Counted from the stretch's first letter, positions 56,470 to 64,000 are shown. The stretch: 64,000 nucleotides of DNA from Candidatus Moraniibacteriota bacterium (GCA_026396275.1 JAPLXC010000005.1:1615-65614); one strand, 5' to 3'. Numbers and translations: made by a program. The notes: generated by a model not told the origin, from the sequence alone.

Positions 56470-56540
56470 ACAAAAAAACAAGCTAGTTTACCCCGCTCTT
56501 ATGGGCGTACGCTCATAGGCGGGGTAAAGATGGCTTGTTT
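56470..56540 (-). terminator. long imperfect hairpin plus T-run downstream of 5S rRNA
   Basis: AACAAGC...TACCCCGC...GCGGGGTA...GCTTGTTTTTTTG read on the minus strand. Confidence 0.5.
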
Positions 56541-56571
56541 TCCAAAAGCATTGTTCTAGCAACGACCCGAT

Positions 56572-56786
56572 GACTAAACTCACAATCTTGGCGACGGCCT
56601 ACTCTCCCCCCACACCAATTTCAACTACAGACCGCAATAATATTTCGCGTGCAAGTGAAGCGACTTCGCTTTCACAACTAAAATACCATAGCGACGTACC
56701 AAAAATTGGTGTGGGGGTACCATCGGGGCTGAAGTGCTTAACGGCCGAGTTCGGAATGGGATCGGGTGTACCCACTTCGCAAAAAT
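56572..56786 (-). rRNA. 5S rRNA with ~87-nt insertion in the helix IV terminal loop
   Basis: Aligned by eye to E. coli 5S. A 13-bp helix I (CAAUCUUGGUGAU / GUCGCCAAGAUUG), loop C CCGAACUC, ...CCGAUGGUA, then extended helix IV CCCCCACACCAA...UUGGUGUGGGGG enclosing ~87 nt, then GAGAGUAGG. Confidence 0.7.
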
Positions 56787-56982
56787 CACCAAGATTGTAA
56801 GTTCAGATCAAAATTTGAACTTCAAATTTATTTTAAGTAACTGCTAACTGCTAACTTGAAAAACGAGAAAGGTTTAATAGTTTATTAGTACTTCTTGGCT
56901 GAATCCCTCTCGGGACTTACACCTGAAGCCTATCAACCTCGTCTTCTTCGAGGAAACCATACCGCGCACAGCGCGGAAGTTC

Positions 56983-57113
56983 AAATTTCAAAGCTCAAAT
57001 TTTCCCGCCAAAGCGAGATCCCGCCGTGGCGGTGGCAAATCAATTTCAAATGGCTAAATTTCAAAAAAATTTTGTCATTTGGATTTTGGGCTTGATTTGT
57101 CATTTGGATTTTT
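56983..57113 (-). repeat. AT-rich TIR element (copy C) at the helix-98-equivalent variable site of 23S
   Basis: Its reverse complement aligns with copies A and B. Flanked by duplicated CGUGCGCAGCACG-like hairpins. Confidence 0.5.
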
Positions 57114-57162
57114 GATTTTGACATTCCGTGCTGCGCACGACAGTTGCCTAATCTTGGGGTGA

Positions 57163-57193
<31 letters not shown>

Positions 57194-57273
57194 TCGTCCG
57201 AACATAGCTACTCGGCGTTGCTCCTGGCGGAACAGCCGATACACCAGAGGTTCGTTCTTCTCGGTCCTCTCGT

Positions 57274-58042
57274 CACATATTCCCTTATTTCTAAGAGTGT
57301 AGACTATATCTTCATCCCCGATGGACATCGAGGAGCCGACGTGTTATAGCAACACATTTCCATATATTTTCCGTTGCTATCCTATCCCGCCTTGGCGGGA
57401 TAAAGTCGTTACGGGGTCAATCCTAAAATTTTTAGCAATTTTCTTTTGGTTCTTTTTTTCTTAGTAACATAATTTTCTTTCTGAATTTTCATCACGCAAT
57501 TAATAAGTTTAATGTAATCCTTCTTTTCAAGGTTCTTTTTACTAAGAATTTTTATAGCTTTTAATATTTCTTGGCACTGGATCTTTTTGAATTTAATAAA
57601 TGGCTTTAGTTTTTCGAGAATACTTTTTGCCTTATTATAGCCATTAATTCGTAGTTCGGTTATGCTATCATTTCTTCTGGAAATATAACCAATGCCGATT
57701 TTTTTCCTAATCCAGTACAAGGGTTTTTCGTGGCGCGAATCCTGATAAAAGCAAATAGTAACCATGAAGCGGCTTTTTCCATTGTCGCTTCGTTTTTTTA
57801 TTTGCAACATTAAGCTTCCATCGCCATCAAGAAAACCTGCAATATAAGCTAAATTAATTTTAGAACGACTTCCCACGGTATTATCTTAATTATTTATCCG
57901 GTCCTCAAGTAACTTTATCATATCACAAAATTCGCTGGACCGCAAATCATTTTGTGATCCCACAAACCGGAAAATAAATGAAGACTTCACCGTTATTAGT
58001 CGGATTTTCAATTCCGCTTGCGCGGAAAAGTAGCAATCTTCT
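57274..58042 (-). mobile_element. group-I-like intron in 23S rRNA at the sarcin-ricin loop (between E. coli U2656/A2657 equivalents), encodes a LAGLIDADG endonuclease
   Basis: Exon junction reconstructs CUCUAGU|ACGAGAGGACC. 5' exon ends in U and the intron ends in G. Shares blocks (AUCCGACUAAUAACGGUGAAG, AUACCGUGGGAAGUC) with the intron at 59118..59358. Confidence 0.7.
57409..57876 (-). CDS. LAGLIDADG-family homing endonuclease (intron-encoded)
   Basis: LAYIAGFLDGDGS motif near the N-terminus. 155 aa, single-motif type, inside intron A. Confidence 0.8.
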   Translation of the reverse strand: MGSRSKINLAYIAGFLDGDGSLMLQIKKRSDNGKSRFMVTICFYQDSRHEKPLYWIRKKIGIGYISRRNDSITELRINGYNKAKSILEKLKPFIKFKKIQCQEILKAIKILSKKNLEKKDYIKLINCVMKIQKENYVTKKKRTKRKLLKILGLTP

Positions 58043-58105
58043 TACTAGAGAAGACTCCCCTCAAGCAACAACGCCTACGGCAGATAGAGACCAACCTGTC
58101 TCACG

Positions 58106-58389
58106 CATATTTGTTCACTTATTACTAAGTGTATGGACTATAACTTAATCCTTTTTTATTTTGTACAAAATTAGGATTGCTAACATTTAGTCTCTACGGG
58201 TTTGTAATTATTTACAATTCCCTCGGTATTGTCCAAACATATTTTGGATTTTACCGAAATTAGTTAGCTTCTCTTTTAACATTACTGTTAAAAGCCGCCA
58301 TGAATGATGTCATTAAATATCCTCGGGTTCAAACAGTAAAATCTCCTTTAACTAAAAAGCTAATGAAGCTAATAGCTAAAAGCTGCTTT
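58106..58389 (-). mobile_element. group-I-like intron in 23S rRNA at the I-CreI-type site (E. coli ~2593; AACCGU|CGUGAGACAG)
   Basis: A 284-nt insertion in the invariant GUCGUGAGACAG segment. Intron ends in G. No ORF. Confidence 0.65.
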
Positions 58390-58453
58390 ACGGTTTGAAC
58401 CCAGCTCGCGTACCGCTTTAATTGGCGAACAGCCAAACCCTTGGGAGCTTCTC

Positions 58454-58493
<40 letters not shown>

Positions 58494-58720
58494 TCCTCCG
58501 TCGATATGGACTCTTGGGAGGAATAAGCCTGTTATCCCCGGGGTAACTTTTATCTGATGATCTTCCACCCTCCTATGAGGGATGGTCGGTTCACTAAATT
58601 CCACTTTCGTGACTGATTGACTTATGGGTCTTTCAGTAAAGCTGGCTTGTGCTTTTGCGCTACCGGCCCGATTTCCATCCGGACCTAGCCAACCTTAGTA
58701 AACGCCTCCGTTGCATTTTG

Positions 58721-58751
<31 letters not shown>

Positions 58752-59117
58752 AGGCACTGTTCCCAACCCGGTACCAATAACCAACAACTTACAACTCACA
58801 ACTAAAATAACATTAAAAGAAATGTTATCAGTTGTTTGTTATCAGTTAGTCATTAGTAACGGGTTAGGGTTAGAACTAAAACTTCAGCAGGGTGGTATTC
58901 CACTGTTGCCTCCATCCCGACCAGAATCGGGACTTCATCGGCTCCCACCTAAGCTCGGCAGCTAAAACTCTAATCCAATGCCAAGTTGTAGTAAAGCTCC
59001 ACGGGGTCTTTTCGTCTTGCCGTAGGTCGACGGCATCTTTACCGTCATTGCGATTTCACCGGGTCCTTCGTCGAGACAGTTACCAAGTCGTTACGCCTTT
59101 GATGCGGGTCAGAATTT

Positions 59118-59358
59118 CATTTTTGCTGTTTTGCTTTCGCAAACAATAGACTATATCTTCACCCCGATATTATATCGGGGGCCGACGTGTTACCCACAAT
59201 AATTGTGAGTCCAGATTAAATAAATAATCTGAGTCGTTACGGGGTCACTAGGACTTCCCACGGTATTACCATATCCTTCAAGGACTTAGGCTTCACCGTT
59301 ATTAGTCGGATTGCTCATGCCGCATTGCTGCGGCATTCAGGCAAATGTCTGACACTTT
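59118..59358 (-). mobile_element. group-I-like intron in 23S rRNA near E. coli position 1951 (CCUUGUCAGGU|AAAUUCUGACC)
   Basis: A 241-nt insertion. 5' exon ends in U and the intron ends in G. Homologous to intron A. No ORF. Confidence 0.65.
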
Positions 59359-59778
59359 ACCTGACAAGGAATTTCGCTACCTTAGGACGATTATAGTTAT
59401 CGCCGACGTTCACTGGCGCTTCGGGAACAAGCTTTCACCCGCTCCGTTAACGTTCCAGCACTGGTCAGGCGTCAGCCCCTATACTTCCCCTTGCGGGTTT
59501 GCAGAGACCTGTGTTTTTGGTAAACAGTCGCCTGGTAAACTTTCGCTGCGTCCCGCCCTTTTGGACTAAAATTTTAAGGCTTCATGAATTTTATTTTCAC
59601 AAGCTTAAAATTCATTCCCAAAAGGGCGGGAAAGACATTTCGCGAACTTACGTCTAGTTTTTTTGCCGAGTTCCTTAACGAAGGTTCTCCCGTTCACCTT
59701 GGGCTACTCGCCCAGTCCACCTGTGTCGGTTTTCGGTACGGACGCTGTTAGATTCGCTCGTATCGCGCTTCGCGCGAT

Positions 59779-59925
59779 ACATCGCTAAATTCAAAAATCA
59801 AAGTGCAAAATGCAAAATTAAGGAACTCGCTACACTCGTAATTTTTTATATTTTAAATATAAAATAATCAGTCGCGAAACGACACCAAAATTTTGATTTT
59901 TGATTTTTGCATTTTGAATTTGAGT
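59779..59925. repeat. AT-rich family-2 inverted-repeat element inside a 23S variable region (domain III)
   Basis: Arms CAAAAATCAAAGTGCAAAATGCAAAA / TTTTGATTTTTGATTTTTGCATTTTG, like 16187..16382. Confidence 0.45.
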
Positions 59926-61085
59926 GAGTATCACACGAAAGGTGATACGAACGACATAGAGGTTTTTCCTGGTAGCGCGCTCGTTCAGCTTCCCCTGATA
60001 AAATCAGAGTTCGCCGCGTTTCTTGAAGTAATGCCCTGCGGATTTGCCTGCAGAGCCCTCTTAAAACGCGGACGTTAATCCAATAAATCGCCTGAATTAC
60101 TGCACTACGTCACCTCATTTATAAACTAATAGCGGTGCCGGAATATTAACCGGCTGTCCATCGACTACGCCTTTCGGCCTCGCCTTAGGACCGACTAACC
60201 CTGGGATGATCGTCATTGCCCAGGAAACCTTGGACTTGCGGTGTGCCGGGTTTTCACCGGCATTGTGGTTACTCATGCCAACATTCTCACTTCCATAAAC
60301 TCCAGTCCGACTCACATCGAACCTTTGCTGCTTATGGAACGCTCTCCTACCGCCAATGCAAAGCATTGGCCCATATCTTCGGTACCATGTTTAGCCCCGT
60401 TACATTTTCGGCGCGAATCTTCTGGTCTAGTGAGCTGTTACGCACTCTTTAAAGGGTGGCTGCCTCTAAGCCAACCTCCTAGATGTATAAGAAAATTCAC
60501 TTCCTTTCCCACTTAACATGGATTTAGGGACCTTAGATGATGATTTGGGCTGTTTCCCTTTTGAGATCCGACCTTAGCGCCGGATTTCTGACTGCCTCGG
60601 TAAATATCGCAAGAATTCGGAGTTTGGTTGAGAACCCTGCGGCGAACCGCGAGTCCTCATTCAGTAGCTCTACCTCTTGGATACAATGTCGAGACGCTAG
60701 CCCTCAAGCTATTTCGGAGAGAACCAGCTATTGCCAAGCTCGGTTGGAATTTCTCCTCTACACACAAGTCATCTCCCAGTTTTGCACGGCTGGTGAGTGC
60801 GGGCCTCCCCCCGATTTTACTCGGGGTTCACCCTGCTCATGTGTAGCTCGCCTGGCTTCGGGTCTAGTCCGCGCGACACGCCTTGTACCACAATGGTACA
60901 AGGCAAAGCCCATTTAAGGCTCGCTTTCACTGTGCATATCCTCCAAAGGAGTTTATACAAGTCACGCAAAACTAACTCGTTGGCTCGTTCTACAAAAAGC
61001 ACGCAGTCACCCCGACTTGCGTCGGGGCTCCTACTCTTCGTTTGCATATGGTTTCAGGTTCTATTTCATCTCCCTCACCGGGATA

Positions 61086-61122
<37 letters not shown>

Positions 61123-62180
61123 ATCTCGCACAATATTTAGCCTTGGAAGATTAGTGCTCCCAGATTCAGACGGGATTTCTCCGGTCCCGCCCTACTTGAG
61201 AATAATAACCGTAAAGATGTTTTCTTTTTATGTACAGGGCTATTACCTTCTATGGCCGCTCTTTCCAGAGACGTTCTATTAAAAAAACATTTTATAACTC
61301 TACCTCCGCAGAATGTAACACGTTGAGAAAAATCTCAAGATGTTACAAACTCGGAGCGTTACCATCCCGCAACGCCGCAATCACCAAAGTAATTACGGTT
61401 TTGGCTTTTCCCCTTTCGCTCGCCACTACTTGGGGAATCACTATTGTTTTCTTTTCCTCCTGGTACTAAGATGTTTCAATTCCCAGGGTGCGCCATACGC
61501 ACCTATGAATTCAGCGCGTATTAATCCCGCCGAGGCGGGATTGGATTGCTCCATTCGGATATCCCCGGATCAAAGCTTGCTTGGCAGCTCCCCGAGGCTT
61601 ATCGCAGCCTGCTACGTCCTTCATCGCTTGTACGAGTCAAGGCATCCACCATATGCATGAGTAAACCTTTCTCTTTGTTAGCAGTTAGCAATTACTTAAC
61701 TTTAGCTAACTTTTTCTTAATTTACGACCTACTTAAAACTTACCACTTTTCACTGACTCATCTTTCCGCAAAACGCGAACAAGCCAATGACAGTTGGTTA
61801 AGACCTATTCAGTTTTCAAGGAGCGATTACTGCGGAAATAAATTAGAACAATATTATTCAAACTTATTTCAACACTAATCATCAACCTGTCACCCACTCA
61901 CCAGTTTCGAAAGCATTCTGGTGATTTCCTAAAACTGGATACACAGTCGCGCCTTCGGCTTGATCTGAAAAAATATTAAATATTGATAAAAACTGGTGAG
62001 GGATTTGTTTCTCTTATCAAAATCAAAGATTTTGAAGAGAAACAAAAAACCGCTTGTTCGGCGGGCTGTCTCCTCAAGAACAACTTAAAAATAAAGAATT
62101 TACCCGCTTCTTTTTCCAATATGCTTTTTTCGAATTGTCTTTACTATATGTTTGAAAAAATAATTAGTTAGTCAGTTTTC

Positions 62181-62223
62181 GACAACGTGTTGTCATATTA
62201 ACAATTCCCGAAAAGGATGTCAA
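62181..62223 (-). promoter_or_regulatory. rRNA promoter TTGACA-17nt-TAATAT with adjacent 14-bp palindrome GACAACGTGTTGTC
   Basis: On the minus strand: -35 at 62218..62223, -10 at 62195..62200, palindrome 62181..62194 at the predicted start site, about 510 nt upstream of mature 23S. Confidence 0.45.
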
Positions 62224-62305
62224 GAGGTCACACCAGAAGTTCTGTGAATAACTCATGCCTTTTGTTGTCCACTCTGTATTACAAACTTAATTACAACAAA
62301 TTTCA

Positions 62306-62331
62306 AACAAAAACAGCTTAGATAAGCTGTT
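62306..62331 (-). terminator. hairpin AAAAACAGCTTATCTAAGCTGTTTTT
   Basis: Perfect inverted repeat with T-run immediately after 62352..63044. Confidence 0.55.
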
Positions 62332-62351
62332 TTTGAAATTTCTAAATTTTT

Positions 62352-63044
62352 CTACTGGTTTCTTTCGGAAATTTCCTCCCGCAGTTTTTTAAGTATCGCC
62401 GCCGCTTCGTCTTTGCCACCCAGACCGAAAGCCAGTCCTACTGCCAGAGACAGCGCCGCTATCAAGCCAATGAATATGGTGTTAACCAAGGAGACCGCGA
62501 TTCCTAATTGAACGAGAGCCGCCAGCAACCCGAAAACCACAATCGCCCATTTGGAAATTGTCGCAAGCAACGTCGCGCTCATTATTCCCGCCGCCCGGGT
62601 GCTATGACGGACCACGTTATAGACGAAATTACCGAGCAAAAAGGCGATGGCCAAAATGATCGTGGCTACCACGAGATTGGGAATATAGAGAATGACGTTA
62701 TTGAGAAAGCCAGTTACTTGGCTAAGGCCAAGAATGTCAGTCGCCGCCATCAAAAATACCAAAATCAAAAACCATTTCACCAGCTCGCCGAAAAACCGGG
62801 AGACGCTTATCCGAAGACCTGTTCCCTTGAACTTTTCCCCTATCCCCATCTTATCCAGCGCTTGATCAATGCGAAGAACCATGATAATTTTTTCAGCCGC
62901 TTTTCCCAAGGCAACCGCTGCAATAAGTCCGAAAAGGAAAACAAGCAGTGCCCCGATAAGAGCAGGAAGAAAACTGATAAACCTCGCCCACAATTCAAGC
63001 AGGGACATTGTTATTGCTTCCCCCCATGTTTGTACCGGATTCAT
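62352..63044 (-). CDS. polytopic membrane protein (small mechanosensitive-channel-like / TM-helix repeat protein)
   Basis: About 5 TM helices and a charged C-terminus. Weak resemblance to the MscS N-terminal region only. Confidence 0.4.
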   Translation of the reverse strand: MNPVQTWGEAITMSLLELWARFISFLPALIGALLVFLFGLIAAVALGKAAEKIIMVLRIDQALDKMGIGEKFKGTGLRISVSRFFGELVKWFLILVFLMAATDILGLSQVTGFLNNVILYIPNLVVATIILAIAFLLGNFVYNVVRHSTRAAGIMSATLLATISKWAIVVFGLLAALVQLGIAVSLVNTIFIGLIAALSLAVGLAFGLGGKDEAAAILKKLREEISERNQ

Positions 63045-63156
63045 TTATTCACCTCCCGTCTAGTAAGCCCCTACACCCTTATGGATGTGGGGGTAAAAAT
63101 TATAAATCCTAAAAACTTTTAATGAAGTTCGGAGTCAGTGACAATTTTTCAAAACC

Positions 63157-63729
63157 CTACCGATTCAGTTCTTTCTTGAATTCTTCATAAATCTTTTCCA
63201 ACACTCCCAGCTCCGGCTGGCCGTCAACTGACAAAACCTTCATCCGGGCCTTAAAAAGCCGTTCTTTGGCTTCATTCAAAGCCAGTCCTTCTTTTTCCGC
63301 TTCTAGAAAGATTAGAGAAATATCTCCCAGATAGTGAATAAACTCCTGGCATTCCTTGCAGTCCTTATACTTTTCCAGCAGTTTTTCAGTTACGGAATAC
63401 ACCTGGCCGATACTGGCATAAAGAGAGTGAAAGTCGTCATAGATCGCCCTGAAAACCTTATCGTCCACGCCGGTTTCCAGTGACATTAAATAGATTTCTT
63501 TTTTAATCAGATCCTCCTTTGTCTGATCATCACTCCAGCTTTTCACTCTGGCTTCAATAAAAACCTCCTCGGCTGACCGCAGGTAGTCAACAAATTCCAC
63601 CAGTTCTTGATAGGGACTGTACTTTTCCTTGAGTTTCGTGCTGATCAGTTCAATTTTTTCTATCTCCTTTTGCATCCGTACTTCCTTTTCATATTGAGAC
63701 GACAAATTTTCCGGTGACTCAATTGACAT
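63157..63729 (-). CDS. hypothetical protein (190 aa)
   Basis: Track ORF with no family recognised. Confidence 0.4.
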   Translation of the reverse strand: MSIESPENLSSQYEKEVRMQKEIEKIELISTKLKEKYSPYQELVEFVDYLRSAEEVFIEARVKSWSDDQTKEDLIKKEIYLMSLETGVDDKVFRAIYDDFHSLYASIGQVYSVTEKLLEKYKDCKECQEFIHYLGDISLIFLEAEKEGLALNEAKERLFKARMKVLSVDGQPELGVLEKIYEEFKKELNR

Positions 63730-63768
63730 ATTTTCTAATTAAATCCTTTTTGCTCCTATGATTTTTTG

Positions 63769-64000
63769 TTAGGGTGCCGGGGTCTCTTGAGGGGCTTGTT
63801 CGGCGGATTGTTCCGGCGTCTGAACAGGCGGCTGGCTCTCATTGGCTCCACGGAGATTATTGGTAATGTTGGTGCCTCCGCTTTCAATATTGGCAATCAT
63901 CTTTTCTATCTGCTGCTTCGCGTCTTGCGATCCTTCCGGGAGCAGATCCAGCACGGTTCGATATTCACTAATAGCATCGCTCTTCCTCTGCGTCTTTTCA
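63769..64000 (-). CDS. hypothetical protein, N-terminus outside window
   Basis: Frame stays open upstream of the GTG at 63954 to the window end. Pro/Gln/Glu-rich C-terminus. Confidence 0.35.
   Translation of the reverse strand, partial: EKTQRKSDAISEYRTVLDLLPEGSQDAKQQIEKMIANIESGGTNITNNLRGANESQPPVQTPEQSAEQAPQETPAP

Follow-up and report, generated by a model that had tools for sequence, protein, structure and literature searches.

The 5S rRNA is among the most size-constrained of all RNAs, and domains II and V of the 23S rRNA are believed to be clamped by its 'toe', the helix IV/loop D region. Loop D inserts into a pocket of 23S helix H42 and touches H39 and H89 (PMC3614586). Enlarged versions of the molecule are on record. 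A published survey (Stepanov & Fox 2021, RNA 27:133, PMC7812874) counts 89 expanded 5S rRNAs, which fall into 15 types. Their inserts measure 13-109 nt and occupy 17 sites, and the genomes concerned are 36 of bacteria and 15 of archaea. [quoted passage not shown] Removal of the insert was not excluded for most of these cases, and the single helix IV case, the Desulfitobacterium 5S rRNA with a 69-nt insert, is suspected of being unable to bind the ribosome (PMC7812874).

In the CPR, rRNA genes are normally single-copy (PMC9297842), and roughly one 5S gene in two measures 105-110 nt, with neither helix IV nor loop D (Tsurumaki, PMC9297842). A survey of 645 CPR 5S genes by cmsearch detected no insertion sequence of 100 bp or more in any of them (Tsurumaki 2024, PMC11270868). 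In our literature search, no report of an expanded 5S rRNA in the CPR was found, nor one of an intervening sequence (IVS) within any 5S rRNA.

The locus considered here lies in a 64-kb (64,000-nt) stretch of DNA, hereafter the window, whose host is an uncultured Candidatus Moranbacteria bacterium (CPR, Parcubacteria) with a genomic G+C content of 42%; the RodA protein encoded in the window is identical to one from a Candidatus Moranbacteria MAG, which places the organism in this group. It adds a structurally distinct case to the rare expanded-5S phenomenon, in a phylum without an earlier description. The site is unfavourable and the gene apparently indispensable: the organism probably cannot live without it, and the toe of its 5S rRNA is extended by 90 nt. 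In relatives, helix IV ranges from 2-4 bp to the canonical 8 bp. An earlier reading of the window, made without database searches (the sequence-only reading), had regarded large 5S insertions as known from a few haloarchaea; this view is outdated, since 36 bacterial genomes are listed too (PMC7812874).

The expanded gene and its operon

The features of the operon around the 5S gene are the following.

56868..61672, minus strand: 23S rRNA gene with at least three introns (Rfam LSU and group I matches; blastn exon mapping against the relatives L002 and L108)
56794..56806, minus strand: 5' leader strand of the precursor processing stem, CUGAACUUACAAU (fold of 56807-56572)
56586..56793, minus strand: complete expanded 5S rRNA gene, 208 nt (Rfam, nhmmer, alignments with relatives, core conservation)
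56718..56793, minus strand: 5' core of the gene, with the helix I 5' strand CUUGGUGAU, helices II and III, loop C, helix V and the loop E 5' strand CCGAUGGUA (Rfam posterior probabilities of about 1; 75.4-bit nhmmer match)
56586..56606, minus strand: 3' core, with the loop E 3' strand GAGAGUAGG, the junction and the helix I 3' strand GUCGCCAAG (nhmmer E = 5.8e-5; 22/23 nt as in L001)
56574..56585, minus strand: 3' trailer strand of the processing stem, UUGUGAGUUUAG (A56586 pairs with U56794)
56473..56543, minus strand: long G+C-rich hairpin with a U-run (fold, z = -3.5), about 43 nt past the distal 5S end

The ends of the gene, 56793 and 56586, were set from homology with the relatives and from helix I pairing. 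An Infernal search with the 5S covariance model, which had been proposed as a check on the sequence-only reading, identifies the locus as 5S rRNA: RF00001 scores 57.4 bits against a gathering score of 38 with its match anchored at 56793, though the returned alignment comprises only 108 nt. The gene had earlier been placed, with no strand given, at 56572-56786; the locus was correct, while the limits were not, as the first 7 nt of helix I had been missed and the 3' end overshot by 14 nt. The central claim was that a genuine 5S rRNA has an extended helix IV whose loop holds some 87 additional nucleotides; it is upheld by the alignment with the relatives, by intact loop E and helix I, and by a split nhmmer match. 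With filters off, a profile built from four relatives aligns its positions 1-81 to 56793-56713 (75.4 bits) and its positions 92-116 to 56611-56587 (E = 5.8e-5). Read 5' to 3' on the minus strand, the order is the 23S 3' end, a 74-nt spacer, CUUGGUGAUUUUUGCGAAGUGGGUACACCCGAUCCCAUUCCGAACUCGGCCGUUAAGCACUUCAGCCCCGAUGGUA, CCCCCACACCAA, 87 nt, UUGGUGUGGGGG and GAGAGUAGGCCGUCGCCAAGA.

All three domains of the 5S fold are present. Helix I is closed, with the distal 3' strand pairing at 9/9 positions with the 5' end of the gene; helices II and III enclose loop C (CCCAUUCCGAAC); and helix V leads through loop E (strands GAUGGUA and GAGAGUA) into the expanded helix IV. Four relatives are invariant at 62 positions outside helix IV, and the core matches them at 61 of these, among them 12/12 such positions in the 3' core. 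It is 89% identical to the 5S gene of L001, while the RodA proteins of the two genomes are only 76% identical. Purifying selection on the core is clearly indicated by this comparison, because neutral DNA would not stay 89% identical at such a RodA distance.

The gene is also bracketed by a stem of its own. The 13 nt preceding it pair with the 13 nt after the distal helix I strand, and together with helix I they form 22 contiguous pairs in both the MFE and the centroid folds of 56807-56572 (-101.5 kcal/mol, z = -8.5), so that the whole 208 nt are enclosed. Equivalent stems of other sequence are found in relatives (GCAUUGU/ACAAUGC in L001 and L002) and in another expanded gene (AGAGUAUUAU/AUAAUACUCU in L060, see below). 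The pairing is therefore common to relatives and to other expanded genes and is built from differing sequences, and this covariation between genomes marks the predicted leader-trailer stem as a precursor processing stem.

The 5S gene lies 74 nt downstream of the 23S 3' end on the same strand and is thus placed for co-transcription with it. The 23S introns are at 59355-59118 (the classic 1917 region), 58389-58106 and 58039-57274, the last of which carries a LAGLIDADG ORF at 57876-57409 (Pfam LAGLIDADG_1). The hairpin at 56473..56543 is likely to be the terminator of the 23S-5S unit; it was missed by a simple terminator scan because of the stem and loop limits of the scan. Beyond it are genes for a 270-aa hypothetical protein, RodA and bL25, and the order 23S-5S-270aa-RodA-bL25 is common to the window and its relatives. 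The 5S gene accordingly occupies the orthologous position downstream of the 23S gene, in the same synteny as in L001, L002, L003, L108 and L109-L111.

No second 5S gene was found in the 64-kb window, either with Rfam or with a lineage-specific covariance model. The sequence-only reading hence survives its own refutation test within these 64 kb, since the locus scores above the covariance-model threshold and no canonical 5S gene accompanies it; in place of a search with the insert masked, the split nhmmer match and the core conservation count were used. The expanded gene is probably the only 5S gene of the organism. All in all, we regard it with high confidence as a genuine, selected, expanded 5S gene.

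Structure, distribution and fate of the helix IV rod

The expanded helix IV consists of the following parts.

56702..56717, minus strand: 5' strand of the 16-bp base stem, CCCCCACACCAAUUUU (MFE folds; pair probabilities 0.94-1.0)
56607..56622, minus strand: 3' strand of the base stem, GAAAUUGGUGUGGGGG (MFE fold, pair probabilities)
56619..56705, minus strand: 87 nt enclosed by the 12-bp stem, which continue the rod with small bulges and include its 3-nt apical loop

Helix IV and loop D occupy 111 nt here, against 20-22 nt in relatives with a canonical helix IV. The 12-bp stem had been described correctly by the sequence-only reading, with CCCCCACACCAA at 56717-56706 and UUGGUGUGGGGG at 56618-56607 enclosing exactly 87 nt. 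The 111-nt element folds as one 47-bp rod at -52.0 kcal/mol (shuffle mean -26.3, z = -8.36), and none of 200 shuffles folded as well. Its 16-bp base stem contains 15 Watson-Crick pairs and one G-U pair, with pair probabilities of at least 0.94; above it, segments of 4+4, 10, 2, 3, 3 and 4 bp follow, separated by 1-2-nt bulges, up to the 3-nt loop. The two hairpins that had earlier been proposed inside the insert are both present in the sequence, while the branched fold that they would form is 6 kcal/mol worse than the single minimum-energy rod (-45.9 kcal/mol). In the fold of the full-length RNA, helix I and the rod stay separate modules. The element resembles the expansions of Stepanov & Fox 2021 in that the insertion exceeds 13 nt, pairs with itself and leaves the core fold undisturbed.

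The rod has a G+C-rich base of about normal helix IV length, followed by an A/U-rich duplex. No trace of the ancestral helix IV sequence is left in the 111 nt, which argues for replacement or outgrowth of the whole helix and not for a clean insertion with target duplication. The suggestion that the insert is a degenerate mobile element, such as a MITE or a REP-like sequence, was not borne out: dispersed copies are absent from the window and from 110 fetched loci (blastn-short; the best off-target hit is a 15-nt exact match, E = 0.067), no target-site duplication flanks the insert, and Rfam finds no family other than 5S in 56540-56820, even at E<=10. A group I or group II intron was likewise rejected, as the insert has no catalytic core by covariance models and is only 87 nt long, where at least about 200 nt would be expected. 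The same Rfam search does detect the group I introns of the adjacent 23S gene.

Comparison with the 5S genes of related genomes, another check proposed with the sequence-only reading, places the expansion in context. Seven syntenic relatives were located through their RodA homologues (66-76% identical). Even the nearest sequenced relative by RodA is only 76% identical, and four of the seven (L001, L002, L003, L108; RodA 69-76%) have 5S genes of 117-119 nt.

L001, L002, L003, L109: 5S of 117 nt, helix IV region of 20 nt
L108: 5S of 119 nt, helix IV region of 22 nt
L110: 5S of 111 nt, 2-3-bp stem
L111: 5S of 108 nt, 4-bp stem and 3-nt loop

The canonical form of helix IV in these genomes is UCCUAAUC-UUCG-GAUUAGGG or similar (20-22 nt; 8 bp and a tetraloop). 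Since all seven relatives have 11-22 nt between the loop E strands and 108-119 nt in total, the expansion is lineage-specific. A helix IV of only 2-4 bp is tolerated in L110 and L111, which suggests that the loop D contacts are dispensable in this clade.

Further expansions were sought with a split-anchor pattern (CAGCNCCGATGRTA, a gap of 71-131 nt, GAGAGTAGG) in 185,579 species genomes and in JGI metagenomes. Most of the matches were spurious: some assemblies had N runs, some loci were tandem duplications or had another GAGAGTAGG further downstream, and four were chance matches in protein-coding sequence. These scans did not find the insert of the window elsewhere, although they did recover other expanded genes, given here with the length between the loop E strands.

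L060, Parcubacteria M10-OD1-1: 75 nt, identical in two further assemblies (L089, L106)
L043: 110 nt, base stem homologous to that of L060
L091: 88 nt, rod-like helix IV
L094: 78 nt, rod-like helix IV

L060 is a named Parcubacteria genome, and the other three have CPR-like rRNA. Each of the four genes is directly downstream of a 23S gene, and the 23S genes beside L043 and L091 contain group I introns. Past the first 3-4 bp the CPR inserts have no common sequence, with the exception of the L043/L060 pair, and thus at least four origins are implied. In all five operons, including that of the window, a G+C-rich clamp of about 6-10 bp, roughly the normal length of helix IV, is followed by an A/U-rich duplex. 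Outside the CPR, a Spirochaetales MAG has a Y-shaped helix IV of 76-77 nt in two copies (L011, L065), and Sporosarcina 5S-like sequences have a helix IV region of 73 nt.

What becomes of the rod in the cell is a separate matter. We favour, at a probability of roughly 45%, its excision as an RNase III-type intervening sequence over its retention. The leader-trailer stem would be the site of precursor processing, and the rod would be comparable in behaviour to the intervening sequences known from bacterial 23S rRNA. An RNase of the RNase III type, specific for double strands, would cut it above the G+C-rich base, with no religation, and the ribosome would receive a two-piece 5S rRNA of about 85-95 nt and 30-35 nt. 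The pieces would be held together by helix I, by helix V and loop E, and by what remains of helix IV, while loop D would be missing; relatives whose helix IV is very short naturally have none either.

Long perfect double-stranded RNA is as a rule a substrate of RNase III, and the near-perfect rod, with its 16-bp base and 47 bp in total, should be a good one; this counts against retention and favours excision. The pocket formed by H42, H39 and H89, where loop D normally resides, is a further argument (PMC3614586), and positions 89.1-93 are rated as sterically disfavoured for large expansions (PMC7812874). The clamp of about normal helix IV length with its A/U-rich continuation, found in all five operons, also speaks for excision. 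As in 23S intervening sequences, the distribution is sporadic and the sequences are unrelated: an extended stem-loop replaces the tip of helix IV, is absent in seven relatives, and has unrelated counterparts in L043, L060, L091 and L094. The 2-4-bp helix IV of L110 and L111 fits with this reading, and L111 encodes an RNase III. Several points weigh against excision. Our literature search turned up no naturally fragmented bacterial 5S rRNA, and the documented precedent, Halococcus morrhuae, keeps its 108-nt insert in the ribosome (PMC7530397). An RNase III motif is absent from the six-frame translation of the window, for which question 64 kb are uninformative. The steric argument is drawn from E. 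coli and yeast, and CPR ribosomes, which have no uL30, differ around this region (PMC9297842). The A/U-rich composition may merely mirror the 42% G+C genome, and this particular insert is present in one genome only.

Retention of the rod as an expansion segment is, by analogy with known cases, a close contender with somewhat less than an even chance of being correct. The mature 5S rRNA would then be 208 nt long, and the rod would project from the central protuberance near bL25, as is supposed for the Halococcus insert and for bacterial expansions of the Thermoanaerobacterium type. This reading has the better precedent, since several of the bacterial and archaeal genomes in the published list have an expanded 5S rRNA as the only type of the cell (PMC7812874) and the Halococcus insert has been observed by cryo-EM (PMC7530397). 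Helix IV length is very free in the clade, where 11-22 nt separate the loop E strands. [quoted passage not shown] The absence of uL30 in the CPR may also leave room. The obstacles are again the entry of the helix IV tip into the H42/H39/H89 pocket, the disfavoured rating of positions 89.1-93, and the suspicion that the Desulfitobacterium insert is non-functional. A perfect 16-bp continuation of helix IV would be unable to bend away before reaching the pocket.

In its most far-reaching form, which has somewhat less than an even chance of being right, the excision reading takes the rod as an intervening sequence removed by RNase III-type cleavage to give a two-piece 5S rRNA without loop D, a situation that would have recurred in at least four independent CPR-like lineages. 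If true, no fragmented 5S rRNA would have been described in bacteria before, so far as our literature search shows, and some of the short or normal CPR 5S calls made with covariance models may hide such elements. Two outcomes are to be considered: CPR ribosomes accommodate a bulky arm at a position that counts as sterically forbidden in E. coli, or bacterial ribosomes can work with 5S rRNA in two pieces. Both would bear on how dispensable the loop D contacts are.

Alternative readings of the locus

Three further readings of the locus jointly hold a small share of the probability. The best of them, which is nonetheless unlikely, is that the gene is inactive or decaying, either a pseudogene or a gene with an extraribosomal role, and that a normal 5S gene elsewhere serves the ribosome. 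There is precedent for this in expanded copies that stand beside normal ones and in 5S remnants at operon ends (Stepanov & Fox, PMC7812874), and the sequence examined amounts to 64 kb of the genome. A decaying gene would hardly be expected to keep 61 of 62 invariant core positions together with an intact processing stem and terminator. In addition, its syntenic slot is that of the canonical 5S gene in seven relatives, and the window contains no other 5S gene, canonical or expanded.

The second reading, which we consider very improbable, takes the covariance-model call at face value. The true 5S rRNA would be the 108-nt form 56793-56686, of the helix-IV-less Parcubacteria type, and the remainder would be a remnant, or a partly duplicated copy, of a 5S 3' end. 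It is the form picked by both models. The RF00001 alignment spans 56793-56686 without a helix IV, and its helix I is closed by CGUCGCUAUGG, which lies within the insert; the same 108-nt alignment was returned in gathering mode and at E<=10 on a 281-nt region. With our own covariance model, for which four canonical relatives were used, the identical short alignment was obtained (75.7 bits). The long alignment was produced by neither Infernal model; the evidence for the long form is homology, together with the processing stem. Genuinely short 5S genes also occur in relatives (L111, 108 nt; L110, 111 nt), and partial tandem 5S duplications in other CPR genomes (L067, L072, L081, L093). The end chosen by Infernal is as follows.

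56686..56705, minus strand: pseudo-3' end in the insert, UUUUUGGUACGUCGCUAUGG, where Infernal closes a spurious 108-nt 5S (8/9 pairs, three of them G-U)

By our estimate, a 9-mer with 8/9 complementarity is expected by chance in 87 nt at a frequency of about 0.2. The nhmmer profile has no match to the insert, or anywhere else in the window outside the two parts of the split match, even at E<=100 with filters off, and the proximal pseudo-end is therefore without homology to the 5S of the relatives. The distal end (GGGAGAGUAGGCCGUCGCCAAGA) is identical at 22/23 nt to that of the relatives (GGGAGAGUAGGCCGCCGCCAAGA) and falls within the match to model positions 92-116. The short form would also be without GAGAGUAGG, the loop E 3' strand, in which the relatives show little or no variation, and the leader pairs only with the distal trailer, the proximal end having no such extension.

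Infernal treats other large helix IV inserts in the same way. L043, with 110 nt between its loop E strands, was called at 87 nt, and L091, with 88 nt, at 101 nt; shorter inserts are spanned correctly, and L060, L094 and L011 were called at 172-175 nt. The short form is chosen because Infernal charges per nucleotide for long local-end insertions, and the 108-nt call is a local-alignment artefact. A partial 5S duplication within the insert was considered in view of GGUACGUCGCUAUGG, which resembles a 5S 3' end, and of the tandem partial duplications in Falkowbacteria; it was rejected on the missing nhmmer match at E<=100. The '5Gap1' short class (Tsurumaki 2022) comprises 105-110-nt genes in which the loop E strands are joined by few nucleotides and followed directly by the helix I 3' strand. 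The 108-nt call has no loop E 3' strand, no 3'-end homology and no processing stem, and does not belong to this class. The genuine short genes L111 and L110 look unlike it. Since such genes do occur in this clade, the published short class is real, and the call in the window only imitates it.

Since RF00001 searches with Infernal shorten such genes to 87-108 nt (the window, L043, L091), surveys of 5S length and insertion in the CPR can miss them. The gene described here would escape the 645-gene survey (PMC11270868) twice, first through cmsearch truncation and secondly because its approximately 91 extra nucleotides are below the 100-bp threshold.

The last reading, an assembly or amplification artefact in the form of a hairpin chimera, has the slimmest chance of all: the contig does come from a MAG, an identical RodA was found in only one record of the RodA search and inverted-repeat chimeras are known to happen, but the rod is imperfect (bulges, G-U pairs, a 3-nt loop), is not the reverse complement of adjacent DNA, has no other copy and has taken the place of the ancestral helix IV instead of duplicating it, and a like architecture occurs in independent CPR-like assemblies, with the insert of L060, L089 and L106 identical in three.

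Comparison with known systems

The closest described systems are the expanded bacterial 5S rRNAs (PMC7812874). In both, a canonical core is combined with a large, internally paired insertion, the occurrence is sporadic among relatives, and the genes have been overlooked by databases and annotation. The size of the insertion in the window (87 or 91 nt, depending on whether the enclosed nucleotides or the gain over relatives are counted) is within the published range, whereas the phylum, CPR/Parcubacteria, differs. The nearest single case is the 69-nt insert of Desulfitobacterium dichloroeliminans. The published sites are in the 3' half of the helix, while the insertion in the window is at the helix IV apex (loop D) and replaces the whole helix. 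Furthermore, the gene in the window is in what is probably the only rRNA operon of the organism, and so it cannot be dismissed as a spare copy, as the Desulfitobacterium gene is. Its insert has no sequence similarity to the helix IV inserts with which it was compared, those of Sporosarcina, the Spirochaetales MAG and the CPR-like operons.

In the archaeon Halococcus morrhuae (PMC7530397), as in the window, a single structured insert makes the 5S rRNA almost twice as long. The insert-bearing 5S rRNA of Halococcus is the only type in the cell, to which the gene of the window, there only probably the sole one, may be likened. The Halococcus insert differs in being archaeal, 108 nt long and branched, and in its solvent-exposed site (104.1-105) between loop E and the three-way junction. 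Its retention in the ribosome was shown by cryo-EM.

The intervening sequences excised by RNase III from the 23S and 16S rRNAs of Salmonella, Leptospira and Coxiella (PMC4990558) provide the other parallel. In both systems the tip of a helix is replaced by an extended stem-loop. Both are sporadic in close relatives and have unrelated sequences at the same site across lineages, and the genomes in which they typically occur are small, with one rRNA operon. The insert in the window has no ORF, while some of the 23S intervening sequences encode a 23S_rRNA_IVP protein.

Finally, the insertion sequences of CPR rRNA genes (Brown 2015; Tsurumaki 2024, PMC11270868) occur in the same kind of organism, and the 23S gene adjacent to the expanded 5S gene is itself an example, with its group I introns and a LAGLIDADG gene. 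Those insertion sequences are at least 100 bp long, are mostly group I or group II introns or carry homing-endonuclease ORFs, and reside in 16S and 23S genes. The 5S insert of the window, in contrast, is a plain hairpin with no intron signature.

Layout and introns of the 23S-5S unit

The 23S rRNA gene of the Moranbacteria window is interrupted by several introns, and its 5' flank carries protein-coding genes. The features concerned are as follows.

56868-61672, minus strand: 23S rRNA gene of about 4.8 kb that contains three or more introns
59355-59118, minus strand: 23S intron, in the E. coli 1917 region
58389-58106, minus strand: 23S intron
58039-57274, minus strand: 23S intron with a LAGLIDADG_1 open reading frame (57876-57409)
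59555-59632, minus strand: rod of 78 nt in 23S helix 63
56958-57143, minus strand: variable or expanded segment of about 186 nt in the 3' domain of 23S
63044-62352: mechanosensitive-channel-like gene, upstream of 23S

The Rfam LSU match to this gene ends at 58333, yet the model positions claimed are 1-2925. Only alignment to relatives recovered the two final exons, 58105-58040 and 57273-56868. No 16S rRNA gene lies upstream of the 23S gene within 61673-64000; this flank is occupied by a hypothetical gene and the mechanosensitive-channel-like gene, and the same arrangement is encountered in the syntenic relatives L002 and L003. In the clade to which the window belongs, the 16S gene is not linked to the 23S-5S unit.

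Rods and variable segments in 23S and 5S rRNA

The helix 63 rod (CCCGCCCUUUUGG...CCAAAAGGGCGGG) is G+C-clamped and A/U-rich, and folds at -44.3 kcal/mol (z = -7.6); L002 has 17 nt at this position, as against 78 nt in the window. In style it is like the rods found in 5S helix IV, and its clamp is nearly identical to that (CCCGCCCAAAUUUU...) of the 5S inserts in two other rRNA operons, those of the Parcubacteria locus L060 and of L043. The segment at 56958-57143 has a counterpart of only about 21 nt in the syntenic relative L108, and can be aligned to L002 at 77% identity. Within this segment, 42 nt (57001-56961) have a further match inside the 23S gene of L002.

L043 lies on contig CAZKWX010000005.1, labelled 'uncultured Bdellovibrionales bacterium', although the rRNA operon there has a CPR-like appearance. 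Two group I introns interrupt the 23S gene of L043, the 5S core is similar to that of L060, and the base of the helix IV rod is homologous to that of the L060 rod. The contig may have been mis-binned, or its label may be wrong.

Short, duplicated and expanded 5S genes

Shortened and expanded 5S genes have the following positions.

L110, 2891-3001: 5S gene of 111 nt, truly short
L111, 2816-2923: 5S gene of 108 nt, truly short
L011, 2726-2899, and L065: two 5S copies with a Y-shaped helix IV of 76-77 nt, in the Spirochaetales MAG Tobar15.5-16.5m-G27

L110 and L111 belong to close relatives of the window (RodA 66% identical), in which helix IV is cut down to 2-4 bp, so that the helix IV region spans 11 to 111 nt within one family-level group.

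A partial second 5S copy follows the complete gene after about 30 nt in L067, L072, L081 and L093 (Falkowbacteria/Patescibacteria), as well as in L101 and L105. This second copy sets in close to the 3' strand of helix III and includes a helix IV, a loop E and a 3' strand of helix I of its own. Such tandem copies are probably real, since they recur in several independent CPR assemblies without runs of N. In many draft genomes of cultured bacteria, a 5S gene runs into an incomplete second copy, with one N or several in a row between the two (L009, L024, L025, L033, L037, L050, L052, L054, and other 'Leaf/Root/Soil' and similar isolate assemblies). These fusions evidently arose as artefacts when collapsed rRNA repeats were scaffolded, and they imitate oversized 5S genes during pattern searches.

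Outside CPR, the Y-shaped helix IV of the Spirochaetales copies adds about 56 nt, and Rfam matches the expanded gene over its full length (174 nt, 92 bits). This is an expanded 5S rRNA from a phylum absent from the listing of Stepanov and Fox (2021). Sporosarcina species (L034, L073, L078 and L087) have 5S-like sequences with a helix IV region of 73 nt; in the last three, the 5' half is unrecognisable as 5S. The Sporosarcina sequences are similar to the pseudogene-like remnants reported from Peptococcaceae and Pseudoalteromonas.
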